DNA from: Alphaproteobacteria bacterium
GTDB taxonomy: Bacteria; Pseudomonadota; Alphaproteobacteria; Rickettsiales; SXRF01
DNA length: 64,000 nt
NCBI GenBank assembly: GCA_043763155.1
Contig: JAYULW010000089.1
Coordinates: 1,308 to 65,307 of the forward strand
Reading direction: 5' to 3'
Shown here: positions 18,308-21,847 of the stretch, piece after piece
Position numbering within the stretch: the stretch's first letter is position 1
How the letters are laid out: every line of letters begins with the position of its first letter
The notes under the pieces: generated by a model
Database searches by the model: none
What the model was told of the DNA's origin: nothing
Seen by the model: the letters and a program-made list of their open reading frames with translations, nothing else
Translations under genes and position numbers: made by a program

Positions 18308-21300
18308 TTACATGGCGGCGGCACGCTTGGGTGCCGTGCTTTCGCCGTGGTATTGCAGGCGCTCCATAAGGCTTAGCACGCTGCGGCTGACGTCGTTTTC
18401 CTTAATGCGTACTTCATAGGTGTTTTTGGGTTTTGAGGAGTGGCTGCCTGCCATGAAGGTGGTGGGCATGGGCATTTCTTCGAGCTGGGCTTTTTCGGCG
18501 AAAATGGCTCTCATTTCGGAGTACAGGCCCTTGGCGCGCTCGCGGCGGGCGGTTTGGCGCTCGCCCTCATAGGCAGGGGGCAGCACGAACGTGTAGCGCT
18601 GGTTGCGGACTTCGTGGGTTACTTTCAGCGAAGGGTACTGGCGCAGGATGCGGATGGCTTTGACTTCGGTGCTGTATTGGCTGTCTTTGGCTTCCAGCGT
18701 ACCTTTGATGCCTTTGGGGATGGTGTCGGTGGGGCGGGCTTTGAAGAGGGCGAGGTCTTCCATGAAAGTCACCGCGTCGCCTACGGGGTGTGCGCCGTTC
18801 GAGGCGGCGTCGGAGGGGCCGGAAAGCACGGTGACATGCAGGTTGATGGGGCGTTTGCCCGCGTTACGCTCCATGCTCAGGCCCGTTACTTTCAGCCTGG
18901 AGCCGAAGGGCGAATTGTCGAGGGCGTATTTGATGAAGTGGGCGCGCTCGCCGGGGGTTTCGCTGCCGTAGCGGGCCTCGGAGGGGGTGGTGGTGATTTT
19001 GAAATTGCCTTCGCTTTGTTTCACCACGCTGACGCTGGGGTCGGCGATGAGCTGCAAAATAGTTTTGGGCACCTGCCGCTTGTGCAGGCGCATGAATTCT
19101 TCCTGATCGAGGCGCTTAAACCATTCGCTGCGGTTGGAGGGATTTTCCACGATAGCGGGCACGGGGTCCACGGGATTGACCGGGTAACGCGGGCGGTGGC
19201 GTTGGGGTTCGATTTTTTGAACCCGCTGAATCTTTGCATCGGCGCCGGTGGTGGAGTTATATTTGATGGTGGCGGTTGTACCTGCCAGCATCTTTTGCTG
19301 CTGCACGCTGAAATGGGGTATGGATTCTACAGGCAGTTCGATGAGGTGGCCTTTGCCCGGCTCATAAGGGATGCGTTTTTTGGCTTCCATGAGTTTGGCG
19401 AGGGCGTTCTTGGCCTGGCCTGCAAGGCTGGGGTCGCGGCCCAGAAGCTCCACATAGCCGGTGACCACGCGCACGCCAAGCTCGTGGGTGGCTTTGGGGT
19501 TGGGCAGGATGGAAAGCGGCTGGGTGAGGTCGAGTTCTTCGGGGTGGCCGACTTTAGTGAAGCCGCTGGCCTTCAAATAGTTCTGCACATAGGCGGGGAT
19601 CACGGGTTTGGCGCGTATTTTTTCGACGGCGAAGATGTGGGTGCCGCTTTTTGCGGCGGCGGCTTCGGCGAGCGCGGGGGTCATGTCGTCGGCGGTCATG
19701 GGGCGGTATTGGGTTTCGCCCATCTGGGTGTTCCAGAACAAGGTGGGGATGTCGCCCAGCTCATCGCGGGCTTTATTGATGGTTACCGACATGAGGGCCG
19801 CGTCGCGGTCCGTGTATTCGAGGGGTTTGATGATGTCTTGCGTCTGGTTGCGCTGGGCGAAGGTCTGGTAGCGCTCGAAGAGCGCGCCCAGGGGCTGCTT
19901 GTTTATTTCCTGGTCCACGCGGATTTCGATGGCGGAGAGTACTTCCACTATTTGTTCGCGGGTGATGCCGTGGGTGAGCAGGTGCAGGCGGCCGGAATCC
20001 ACCACGAAGGCGAAGTCGAGGACGCGCTCGCCGAAGCGATGCTTCAGCTCGCCTGCGGCGATGCGGCGGATTTGTTCGTTGATTGATTTGCCGAGCGAAG
20101 TGCTGACTTCGTTGGTTCCGGCGAAACTGCTCAGGCCGATGTAACTTAAAAGGCGGGTTTCGTGGTCGCAGGACTGGAAGAGTTCGAGGGCAGGCTTAGT
20201 GCGGCCACTCAGGCAGATGCCGTATTCGTCGCGGGCGTTGAAAAATTTGAGGGGTTTGTCGAAGAAGGCGTGGCGCTGCTCGTCGGTGAGGCCGATTTTT
20301 ACGGCTTGCTTGTCCAGCGTGCGCTTGCGGGTAAGGTCGAAGCACTCGTAGGAATTCAGGGTGCCCAGAAAGGTGGTGAGGTTCTGGGTGAGGGCATCTT
20401 TGGTGCTGTCGAGCTGCAAAACAGCGTATTCGTCCTTGGAAAACGGGGTTTCCTGATAGACTTTTTCGATGGTTTTGAGGATGTGGGCCGCGACCTCTTC
20501 GGGCTTGCGCTCAAGCGCGAAGGGCATTTCGTCAATGTCGGTTTTCAGGGCGATTTTCAGGCGGCGCACGGCGTCGTCGGAGACAGTGACGTAGGTTTTG
20601 GTGATTTCGATGAATTTTTCGATGTAGTGCTCAGGGTTGTTTGCGGGCAGCGCATGGATGCGCTCAGGCGCGAGATCGTAGGGGAATTCGCGGCGGTCGT
20701 TCTCAGGGCGGCGATAAAGTTTGTCGAAGGGAGGCTTGCGCACGGTGTTGATGATGGTGCGGAAGGCTTCCATGTGGTTGTAGCGGATGGTGCCGAGTTC
20801 TTTGCTTTTGGCATCGTCTTTGTGGGGGCTGTGGAAGATGGTCTGGCGGGCCTCCAGAGCCTTGGTGATGTAAGCGCCACGGGTGGCGGCGCGCTGTTCG
20901 CGATTTTCATTCACCTCGTGGTCTATTTTGTTCAGCAGTTCGTCGGTGGTGAGGCCCTCGCCCAGCGCCACTGCGCCGATTTTGATACCTGCGCCGCCAT
21001 ATTTGAAGGCGTTGAAAACATGGGGGTCGGCGAGCTGGTCGAACGTGTGGATCTCGTGCCAGGGCTGGTTGTCTTTGAGGTATTTTAAATGGGGGAGCGA
21101 ATCGAAGCCCAATGAGTGGGTGAATTTGCCTACCTTCTCCTGCGCGGATTTCATGGCGTCTTTAATGTCGTCATCGTCGAGGCCCGCGATTGCGATGCGG
21201 AACTCGTCGCCGGATGAGAGGCGGATGAGGTTCATGTGGGAGCTGAGGTTTTCTTTGGTGACGTTGGCGCCTTTGGATTTCAGTTTGGCTTCAAACTCGT

Positions 21301-21847
21301 GCATTACGATGCCGTTGATAATGCGGATGTAGCCGTCGGTGAACTGGGTGGTGGTGGTGCGGTGGCGGTTGCTGCGCGTGGGGTTCAGGCGGTCGGTGGC
21401 GCTGATCATGCGCTCGGCGGCTTTCATGACCGCTTCCATGTTCACGATGTCGTACTGCACGATGTGAGCGTTGCGCATGGGGTGGTCTTTGCCTGGGGCA
21501 GTGTAGGCTTCCTGCACCCACAGGTCGAGGAGCGCGGTGAGGAAGTTACCGCCGGAATTGGCGAGCGCACCGGTGCGGGTTTCGCGGCTGAGAAGCGGGT
21601 TCATCACCTTGCAGGCAATGTCGGTGGCCTGGTTGAGCTTGCCTATTTCGGCGGTGGCGCCCTCGCCCTTAAGCGTAGCTTCATCGCGCCAGTTGACGAT
21701 GGATTCCTGGGATTGCAGCAGTTTGCGCAGCAGTGCGTCGGGCGATTCCAGCGTGTGGAGGTTCGCCAGCATGCGCAGCGTTTCGTGCCGCTTCAGGCCG
21801 AGGCCTTCTTCGACGTTTGCGAAGAAACTGTTATAGCAATTCGTCAT
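18308..21847 (-). CDS. Large (1179-aa) soluble hypothetical protein with divergent GGDEF/palm-like N-terminal region
   Basis: Long uninterrupted ORF with balanced composition. Residues ~130-330 follow GGDEF topology (HIVQYDIVNM ... LIRLSSGDEFRIAIAGL ... GAGIKIGAVAL). I recognise nothing in the remaining ~850 aa. Flanked upstream by 248 bp of AT-rich non-coding DNA. Confidence 0.8.
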   Translation of the reverse strand: MTNCYNSFFANVEEGLGLKRHETLRMLANLHTLESPDALLRKLLQSQESIVNWRDEATLKGEGATAEIGKLNQATDIACKVMNPLLSRETRTGALANSGGNFLTALLDLWVQEAYTAPGKDHPMRNAHIVQYDIVNMEAVMKAAERMISATDRLNPTRSNRHRTTTTQFTDGYIRIINGIVMHEFEAKLKSKGANVTKENLSSHMNLIRLSSGDEFRIAIAGLDDDDIKDAMKSAQEKVGKFTHSLGFDSLPHLKYLKDNQPWHEIHTFDQLADPHVFNAFKYGGAGIKIGAVALGEGLTTDELLNKIDHEVNENREQRAATRGAYITKALEARQTIFHSPHKDDAKSKELGTIRYNHMEAFRTIINTVRKPPFDKLYRRPENDRREFPYDLAPERIHALPANNPEHYIEKFIEITKTYVTVSDDAVRRLKIALKTDIDEMPFALERKPEEVAAHILKTIEKVYQETPFSKDEYAVLQLDSTKDALTQNLTTFLGTLNSYECFDLTRKRTLDKQAVKIGLTDEQRHAFFDKPLKFFNARDEYGICLSGRTKPALELFQSCDHETRLLSYIGLSSFAGTNEVSTSLGKSINEQIRRIAAGELKHRFGERVLDFAFVVDSGRLHLLTHGITREQIVEVLSAIEIRVDQEINKQPLGALFERYQTFAQRNQTQDIIKPLEYTDRDAALMSVTINKARDELGDIPTLFWNTQMGETQYRPMTADDMTPALAEAAAAKSGTHIFAVEKIRAKPVIPAYVQNYLKASGFTKVGHPEELDLTQPLSILPNPKATHELGVRVVTGYVELLGRDPSLAGQAKNALAKLMEAKKRIPYEPGKGHLIELPVESIPHFSVQQQKMLAGTTATIKYNSTTGADAKIQRVQKIEPQRHRPRYPVNPVDPVPAIVENPSNRSEWFKRLDQEEFMRLHKRQVPKTILQLIADPSVSVVKQSEGNFKITTTPSEARYGSETPGERAHFIKYALDNSPFGSRLKVTGLSMERNAGKRPINLHVTVLSGPSDAASNGAHPVGDAVTFMEDLALFKARPTDTIPKGIKGTLEAKDSQYSTEVKAIRILRQYPSLKVTHEVRNQRYTFVLPPAYEGERQTARRERAKGLYSEMRAIFAEKAQLEEMPMPTTFMAGSHSSKPKNTYEVRIKENDVSRSVLSLMERLQYHGESTAPKRAAAM

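Follow-up and report, generated by a model that had tools for sequence, protein, structure and literature searches.

The gene and its product

The DNA considered here (the window) is a stretch of 64,000 nucleotides from an alphaproteobacterium assigned to the Rickettsiales (contig JAYULW010000089.1 of assembly GCA_043763155.1, positions 1,308 to 65,307 of the forward strand). Its longest open reading frame (ORF), 18308..21847 on the minus strand, encodes a protein of 1179 amino acids, the runner-up being alanyl-tRNA synthetase with 944, in line with a first-pass annotation made from the sequence alone, which had called it the largest gene of the window. GGDEF domains normally make the bacterial signal cyclic di-GMP (c-di-GMP), and a tandem architecture of two GGDEF-type palms, the first with its catalytic residues preserved and the second degenerate, can be assigned to this protein with high confidence. 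The coding sequence runs over 3540 bp from an ATG codon through the stop codon. The start codon is confirmed by the N-terminus MTNxYN, which is invariant in all aligned homologues. The GC content at third codon positions (GC3) is 0.77, against 0.73 for recA of the window, which resembles that of native genes, and thus the gene is not obviously foreign. The ORF is a genuine gene, native in appearance. The maximum Kyte-Doolittle mean over 19 residues is 1.04 and no transmembrane segment is present, as expected from the earlier description of the product as soluble.

Searches of the protein against Pfam, NCBIfam, PADLOC, PHROGs and the PDB sequences (phmmer) gave no match at E ≤ 10, which bears out the earlier statement that no sensor or known effector domain is visible, and by the usual criteria the product is a protein of unknown function. 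A match of the seven-member family profile to a pentatricopeptide repeat (PPR) protein in the PDB (E 0.8) was judged to be spurious. In the literature, no paper was found on this family or on a tandem GGDEF-like effector.

A GGDEF-like palm in module 1

Module 1 comprises residues 88–335 (20843..21586, on the minus strand like all parts of the gene given below), as delimited by AlphaFold2, Foldseek, alignment and profiles. The full-length AlphaFold2 model was built from a shallow alignment of seven sequences, with a predicted local distance difference test (pLDDT) of 68 and a predicted TM-score (pTM) of 0.50, the pLDDT being ~76 over module 1. The order β-α-α-β-β-α-β-α occurs twice in this model. 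In module 1, it is formed by strand 127–135, helices 137–154 and 166–192, hairpin 205–209/215–221, helix 225–246, strand 287–294 and helix 301–333, with an insert of ~20 amino acids in helix A and another of ~22 amino acids ahead of strand 4. The first-pass annotation had threaded residues ~130–330 onto the diguanylate-cyclase topology, and its assignments fall on the corresponding elements of the model: HIVQYDIVNM as β1 on strand 127–135, TDGYIRIINGIVMHEFEAKL on helix 166–192, LIRLSSGDEFRIAIAGL on the RxGGDEF-like hairpin 205–209/215–221, and GAGIKIGAVAL on strand 287–294.

Upon a Foldseek search of the PDB with the model, most of the top places were taken by GGDEF domains at a probability of 1.00 and a target-normalised TM-score of 0.6–0.71, including those of a bacteriophytochrome cyclase, WspR, SiaD, PleD, DosC, DgcZ and a Thermotoga maritima GGDEF protein. 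The absence of a palm match, which the first-pass annotation had named as the outcome that would speak against its threading, did not occur. Two Cas10 subunits were interspersed among these matches, with 700–850 aligned columns and a TM-score of 0.11–0.15.

The same fold was reached from the sequence via distant relatives. An exhaustive search with the family profile found ten proteins outside the family (E 1e-7 to 6e-4), the best stretches of which together range over profile positions 70–367 and all cover positions ~205–238, that is, the SGDEF hairpin and the next helix. Eight of the ten match Pfam GGDEF (PF00990) at E ≤ 0.01 and four pass its gathering threshold of 23.8 bits, the best at 40.6 bits (E 2.9e-10); this match lies on the segment aligned with module 1 in some of them and on a second, downstream segment in others. 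Module 1 aligns collinearly over ~230 columns between family and relatives. Common to both are the lead-in K/R-D-x-x-T-G-x-Y, the strand-1 motif h-h-V-E-x-D-x-x-N-M and the hairpin motif R-x-(S)-G-G-D-E-F-R-x-h-V-x-G-L, followed by G-x-D-x-L-P-H-x-K-Y, the Gly-rich strand 4 and L-D-x-x-I-x-x-x-K/R. In a profile-to-profile comparison by hhalign, module 1 of the family alone and that of the relatives alone match at 99.7% probability (E 5e-26, 188 columns). When the profile was broadened with the relatives and compared with the PDB, 11 of the 12 matches were GGDEF proteins (diguanylate cyclases), among them DosC at E 6.4e-5, in an alignment that puts D133 on the metal Asp and GDEF on GGDEF.

The resemblance to GGDEF might be a chance motif in an unrelated fold, as the empty direct searches of Pfam, NCBIfam and PDB sequences and the shallow alignment used for structure prediction would allow. 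This is highly improbable, however, since transitive profiles, predicted secondary structure and the Foldseek GGDEF matches agree on one register. The GGDEF-type palm assignment is thus supported by the agreement of transitive homology, the AlphaFold/Foldseek fold and the conservation of catalytic acids.

Predicted active-site residues of module 1

The strand-1 motif Y132-D133-I-V-N136-M137-E138 (21434..21454) contains D133, the equivalent of the metal-ligand Asp, and its D..N pattern is invariant across the clade. The hairpin S212-G213-D214-E215-F216 (21200..21214), preceded by R209, takes the place of GGDEF in the family alignments and in the DosC profile match. P252-H253-L254-K255-Y256 (21080..21094) is a clade-specific His-x-Lys motif, recognised in an alignment of 14 sequences, ahead of strand 4 (GGAGIKIG, 284–291). 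D133 and D214/E215 correspond to the ligands of the two metals in GGDEF enzymes and R209 to the Arg in RxGGDEF, so that the metal Asp, the acidic pair and the preceding Arg of diguanylate cyclases are all kept in module 1. Among the 14 sequences, which consist of the family and its ~20%-identical relatives, D133, N136, R209, G213, D214, E215, K255 and G285 are invariant and H253 is nearly so. N136, H253 and K255 lie outside the canonical GGDEF site and mark the clade. The Asp of Y132-D133 and the acidic pair of G213-D214-E215-F216, the loss of which among homologues had been set beforehand as a refutation test, are invariant in seven of seven family members and in 14 of 14 of the wider set.

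As judged from this alignment, the conservation of catalytic residues favours an enzyme over a pseudo-enzyme, that is, a palm fold without catalysis serving as a scaffold or as a receptor of a nucleotide or c-di-GMP. Many degenerate GGDEF domains do serve as receptors or scaffolds (PMC3974145), module 2 (see below) certainly lacks the catalytic acids, and module 1 deviates from the canonical motif at several places. Nevertheless, a pseudo-enzyme is quite unlikely: D133, R209, D214 and E215 do not vary even when identity falls from 54% to ~20%, phage and Legionella relatives included, as would be expected of an active site and not of a relic, and there is no RxxD motif of the kind by which an inhibitory site (I-site) would act as a receptor.

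If module 1 is an enzyme, its product might still be c-di-GMP. In an ordinary, very diverged diguanylate cyclase, the protein would homodimerize via its helical regions to bring together two GTP-loaded module-1 sites, and module 2 and the C-terminal domain would be regulatory or sensor-like. In its favour, the metal ligands are preserved and so is the Arg-x-(G/S)GDEF hairpin. The SGDEF and AGDEF variants of ECA3270, MbaA and VCA0965 can make c-di-GMP (PMC3974145; PMC8079147), and therefore Ser alone does not disqualify module 1. Signalling by c-di-GMP is also expected in the host, an alphaproteobacterium that is motile and has flhB and two-component systems. Guanine is specified by a pair of residues on helix A, N335 and D344 in PleD. 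The equivalent of the guanine-binding Asp is D171 (in FTDGY), which is kept in all members except P0003, where it is Asn. On the other hand, at the position of the guanine-pairing Asn (+8 from D133) the family has Met or Lys, and the distant relatives have Asn. In addition, no RxxD inhibitory site is found in the module-1 sequence upstream of the hairpin, and the clade has its own invariant set, N136/H253/K255, which is not canonical. An ordinary diguanylate cyclase is accordingly regarded as unlikely, and two further points against it are given below with the conservation of module 2 and the rarity of the family.

A second, degenerate palm in module 2

Residues 532–837 (19337..20254) form module 2, a degenerate GGDEF-like palm recognised by hhalign and by PDB profile matches. 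Near residue 600, where the first-pass annotation had perceived a second, weaker echo of the motif, the AlphaFold2 model has strand 567–572, helix 584–612 and hairpin 613–616/620–626, and by alignment register and family invariants D617-S618-G619-R620-L621 (19985..19999) stands in the place of GGDEF, with Asp changed to Gly and Glu to Arg. Strand 1 is in register as Y-I-G571-L-S-S-F-A-G-T-N579-E, in which the metal Asp is replaced by Gly and the +8 Asn is kept. The catalytic acids of diguanylate cyclases are hence absent from module 2 (G571, G619, R620). Module 2 of the distant relatives has GGGKF or GGGRF in the place of GGDEF and keeps an acidic residue on strand 1. The module-1 sequence P-H-L-K-Y…GAGIKIG recurs in module 2 as P782-N-P-K785…G-V-R-V-V-T-G. 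An α/β insertion of ~125 amino acids (residues 650–775; 19523..19900) is seen in the AlphaFold2 model and is missing from the distant relatives.

That this echo is a paralogous module is indicated by profile comparisons. The relatives show collinear second HMMER stretches, for example P0010 with 21.8 bits for profile positions 571–655. By hhalign, module 2 of the family matches module 2 of the relatives at E 9e-10, and module 1 of the relatives matches their module 2 at E 1.4e-13. Upon comparison of the broadened module-2 profile with the PDB, most of the 32 matches were GGDEF proteins, including 3ign (E 3.6e-5) and DosC (E 4e-4).

Among six full-length members, 43% and 40% of the positions are invariant in the two cores of module 2, compared with 27% in module 1 and 18% in the C-terminal domain. 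No other part of the protein is as conserved as module 2, which is therefore not a decaying relic. Conservation exceeding that of module 1 would be unusual for a regulatory appendage, as module 2 would be in an ordinary diguanylate cyclase.

Remaining regions of the protein

Outside the two palms, the N-terminal residues 1–87 (21587..21847) form a family-specific helical region, with AlphaFold2 helices within 2–86 at a pLDDT of ~80. The linker between the modules, residues 336–531 (20255..20842), consists of a low-confidence loop (339–386) and a helical bundle (392–518), and 13% of its positions are invariant. The second linker, residues 838–900 (19148..19336), is predicted to be disordered (pLDDT 24–32), with 5% of positions invariant. 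It is followed by the C-terminal domain, residues 901–1169 (18341..19147), in which a separate model (pLDDT 76) shows two α-β-β-α-β-β(-α) repeats that are related to each other (hhalign E 1e-4 over 94 columns). An exhaustive profile search matched this domain to no protein outside the family, and Foldseek against the PDB and the BFVD viral models gave nothing convincing (TM-score ~0.2). LAGLIDADG-type endonucleases, which have the same topology, recur in both Foldseek lists, and this kinship was set aside as the scores are too weak to claim it. The ~850 amino acids described as unrecognisable in the first-pass annotation are thus resolved in part, into the second palm with its insert of ~125 amino acids, the helical linkers and a C-terminal domain with an internal duplication.

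Rarity and phyletic spread

The family is very rare. Collections of 5.8–15 billion proteins yielded only about eight full-length homologues of 38–54% identity, all from uncultured Alphaproteobacteria. Six homologues besides the query, five of them full-length with 38–53% identity and one of 940 amino acids, came from a word-indexed search among 5.8 billion clusters, and a cluster look-up added one full-length homologue. One homologue is annotated merely as a hypothetical protein of a metagenome-assembled genome (MAG) labelled Rickettsiales bacterium. When the family profile was run exhaustively with HMMER against 1.84 billion representatives, two fragments and no further full-length member were found. 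Two Alphaproteobacteria MAGs carry the gene among the GTDB species representatives, a scan of JGI metagenomes gave nothing beyond one contig already known, and no family match was found in GenBank phages or PLSDB plasmids. With the profile of the distant relatives, the word-indexed search found three more sequences, which are of the Legionella type. A family of this size is much too rare for a housekeeping signalling enzyme, which is another point against an ordinary diguanylate cyclase.

The gene neighbourhood is not conserved: the flanking genes are different in every homologue locus and no conserved operon was found. Guilt by association is therefore unavailable, and the context indicates no product or pathway. 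The proposed check of neighbourhood conservation thus came out negative, and the label of orphan is appropriate in that the gene stands alone, but not in that it has about eight full-length homologues and a sparse wider clade.

Some features of the homologue loci may be recorded here. The homologues P0005 and P0004 (loci L001 and L002) adjoin giant ORFs of 1742, 1709 and 1242 amino acids without Pfam domains (L001 448–5676 and 15404–23582; L002 968–10004). Just downstream in L001 are an integrase gene, a DUF736 gene, an HTH_17 gene and a restriction-modification pair (MvaI_BcnI and a DNA methylase), and this gene content suggests an integrative element.

Distant relatives and possible delivery

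The distant relatives define a clade marked by D..N, GGDE and H-x-K. Tandem-module proteins of this clade are found in Legionella-like bacteria and Alphaproteobacteria MAGs (P0010–P0018, P0023–25), and a single-module version is found in phage virion proteins (P0015 and the protein at L015). The Legionella anisa relative has an N-terminal leucine-rich repeat (LRR) match. P0017, a tandem relative of the Legionella type, is encoded in a 17-kb stretch (L009) with three ankyrin-repeat genes, which are typical of the genomes of intracellular bacteria. P0015 is an 1147-aa protein of a phage virion module (L008 10001–13444) with one GGDEF-like domain of the D..N/HGGDE/HPK type, encoded between the gene of an internal virion transglycosylase and those of further large proteins. 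Its N-terminal end matches the corresponding part of the virion RNA polymerase PHROG (N4-type), and its palm matches the unannotated phrog_14602, which the window protein does not match. The second phage protein, at ~5300–8400 of L015 (an IMG/VR contig), likewise carries a single GGDEF-like domain of this type, with the motifs D-x-x-N, RHGGDE and H-P-K.

These relatives raise the question of whether the window protein serves as an effector whose palm, after delivery to a rival bacterium or a eukaryotic host, would make or mimic a nucleotide signal there; such a role is compatible with the enzymatic function favoured below. GGDEF domains have been described in the polyvalent proteins that phages and conjugative elements deliver (PMC5512222). 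Consistent with delivery are the LRR of the Legionella anisa relative, the three ankyrin-repeat genes around another relative, the two relatives that are large proteins of phage virion modules, the giant orphan ORFs (1242–1742 amino acids) beside the homologues at L001 and L002, and the scattering of the genes of the family and its relatives among housekeeping genes without an operon. However, neither the gene, the window nor the homologous loci are linked to a secretion system, a chaperone or a recognisable secretion signal, the window looks like an ordinary chromosome of a flagellated, motile bacterium with TonB, the host is represented by uncultured MAGs only, and the link to delivered proteins depends on relatives of ~20% identity. 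Delivery of the window protein itself is thus doubtful.

Upstream region and surrounding genes

The gene is preceded by an intergenic region of 248 bp (21848..22095) with 44% GC against a window average of ~57%, in agreement with the AT-rich gap noted in the first-pass annotation. A single sigma-70-like site, CGGACA-17-AATAAT, lies in this gap (21892..21864, minus strand) and is the sole such site found between 17 and 23 kb of the window. The decamer TAATATTCAT (21871–21880, minus strand), located 25–35 nt before the start codon, overlaps the predicted -10 element and is common to the upstream DNA of the window gene and that of the 41%-identical homologue at L003. Apart from this 10-nt motif, shared with L003 only, no alignment was found among the upstream regions of the homologues, and an Rfam search of the 248-bp leader gave no riboswitch or other RNA element.

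Downstream, the neighbour at 17535–18299 on the plus strand is convergent, as had been stated, at a distance of 8 bp, and encodes a credible polytopic membrane protein of 254 amino acids. The product contains a HELGH (HExxH-type) motif without a Pfam match, and from this motif it may be an unrecognised membrane metalloprotease. A minus-strand ORF at 17709–18158 was considered as the true downstream gene because of a skew resembling that of the 1179-aa gene, and was rejected as an Arg/Pro/His-rich antisense artefact, since the plus-strand ORF encodes a coherent membrane protein. Also nearby are orphan ORFs and the genes of a GT2 glycosyltransferase and a histidine kinase. The histidine kinase (HisKA/HATPase; 15850–16977, GC3 0.38), 1.3 kb further downstream, lies in a low-GC patch at 15200–17200 (40–47% against ~57%) and directly adjoins tRNA-Arg(TCT) at 15640–15716, with tRNA-Val at 14812–14888. 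The patch resembles a small insert that was acquired horizontally at a tRNA gene.

The rest of the window is an ordinary alphaproteobacterial chromosome with rmlBAD, tonB/exbB, panC, lytB, flhB, recA, alaS and purA, and the closest RecA sequences all belong to uncultured MAGs labelled Rickettsiales, Alphaproteobacteria or Pseudomonadota. An ORF of 720 amino acids (59406–61568, plus strand) has a sub-threshold match to the eukaryotic-type Pkinase family (E 8.7e-5; 22.5 bits against a cut-off of 31.7). ORFs of 370–510 amino acids without any Pfam match are found at 1949–3055, 13115–14635, 22880–24223, 24445–25893, 51787–53121 and 53298–54764. The product of 22880–24223 is weakly similar (27% over 160 amino acids, E 3e-9) to a protein encoded ~9 kb upstream of the L003/L006 homologue.

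Comparison with known systems

The GGDEF diguanylate cyclases (PF00990), such as PleD, WspR, DosC and DgcZ, have the same palm topology as module 1, and solved GGDEF structures are its best structural matches. The strand-1 metal Asp, the acids of the Arg-x-GGDEF type and the D-x-x-T-G lead-in are aligned in register. Unlike these enzymes, the window protein falls below any Pfam threshold, and module 1 has SGDEF or NGDEF with an extra loop residue, lacks the guanine-reading Asn and the I-site, and carries the insertions of ~20 and ~22 amino acids together with the clade-specific Asn136, His253 and Lys255. Moreover, the window protein has two modules per chain, the second of which is catalytically dead, and no sensor or receiver domain. 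ECA3270, MbaA and VCA0965 resemble it in having another residue for the first Gly of the motif (SGDEF or AGDEF; Ser in the window protein) while D-E-F is retained. They are otherwise canonical, Pfam-detectable GGDEF proteins with sensor or EAL partners, from which the window protein is far more diverged and differs in architecture. In the D..N/GGDE/H-x-K clade, modules 1 and 2 are collinear with those of the family, the same residues are invariant, and module 2 is likewise degenerate (GGGKF against DSGRL in the family). These relatives are of ~20% identity and 480–880 amino acids, and lack the N-terminal region, the module-2 insert and the duplicated C-terminal domain of the family.

Like the window protein, Cas10 of type III CRISPR systems combines a competent and a degenerate palm in each chain, and in Cas10 the two palms form a joint nucleotide-joining site. 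The live/dead pairing of palms in the C1/C2 class III cyclases is analogous to that in Cas10. In contrast to Cas10, the window protein has neither an HD domain, a GGDD motif nor a zinc finger, and lies away from cas genes and any CRISPR context; no cas genes were found in the homologue loci inspected either. The TM-scores to Cas10 are low (0.11–0.15), and the order is inverted: the active palm of the window protein comes first and the degenerate one second, whereas in Cas10 the degenerate palm comes first. In its presumed way of working, the protein comes nearest to a palm nucleotidyltransferase of the GGDEF or Cas10 type. The family is taken to be a GGDEF lineage that is highly diverged and very rare, with an architecture that is new and a C-terminal domain that cannot be assigned.

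Proposed function

Domain homology, architecture and residue conservation are shown by the analysis, whereas what module 1 catalyses, what module 2 contributes and which product results are inferred. The explanation that we favour, with evenly divided confidence, is a soluble, stand-alone palm nucleotidyltransferase or cyclase with a single active site, in which the live module 1 and the dead module 2 form a Cas10-like pseudo-heterodimer that yields a non-canonical product. Module 1 would bind a nucleoside triphosphate with Mg2+ and catalyse attack of a 3′-OH on the α-phosphate with release of pyrophosphate. Module 2 would stand in for the second protomer of the diguanylate-cyclase dimer, holding an acceptor nucleotide, another substrate or a regulator against module 1, so that the whole protein might be an intramolecular pseudo-heterodimer with one active site, as in Cas10 and C1/C2-type cyclases. 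A product other than symmetric c-di-GMP is expected because there is only one catalytic half-site and base recognition is altered, the guanine-reading Asn being missing; a non-canonical linear or cyclic (oligo)nucleotide would be likelier. The duplicated, family-specific C-terminal domain probably gives targeting or regulation.

Several observations weigh against this explanation or against the domain assignment beneath it. Pfam GGDEF is blind to the window protein, the best of seven family members giving just E 0.12. The AlphaFold2 model is of medium confidence only (pLDDT 68, pTM 0.50), with a pLDDT of just 48–76 in the core of module 2. Direct comparison of module 1 with module 2 within the family is not significant (E 0.3–0.36), and the duplication is therefore demonstrated via the relatives only, although the best register is still the expected one (…IAIAGL… on …LLTHGI…). 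The hairpin of module 1 is one residue longer than RxGGDEF and its first Gly is Ser or Asn. Position +5 after the metal Asp is Glu138, while PleD-type enzymes have Lys there. Finally, the homologue loci compared contain no conserved partner, receptor or degrading enzyme near the gene.

On a broader view, the family and its Legionella-like and phage relatives would together be an unrecognised class of palm enzymes, in which an active GGDEF-like module is paired with a dead one in cis. Their product would differ from c-di-GMP and might be a short oligonucleotide, a mixed cyclic dinucleotide or linear pppNpN. Members from phages and Legionella, if no others, would reach another cell by delivery and there set up or subvert signalling by nucleotides. 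This proposal is a conjecture of low probability.

Implications

Few bacterial signalling enzymes are as abundant as the GGDEF domains, which are considered well catalogued. The present lineage is too diverged for Pfam, NCBIfam and PDB sequence searches, and yet it has preserved the catalytic core and acquired invariant residues of its own. The presence of a live and a dead palm in cis is the design principle of Cas10 and the C1/C2 cyclases, here found within a GGDEF lineage, and it suggests an evolutionary route by which symmetric dinucleotide cyclases might give rise to enzymes that have one site and form new products. A role in conflict between organisms is hinted at by the occurrence of this domain type in virion proteins of phages and in the LRR fusion of Legionella. 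For annotation, a hypothetical protein of 1179 amino acids becomes an enzyme candidate that can be tested, since its predicted active-site residues are now named.

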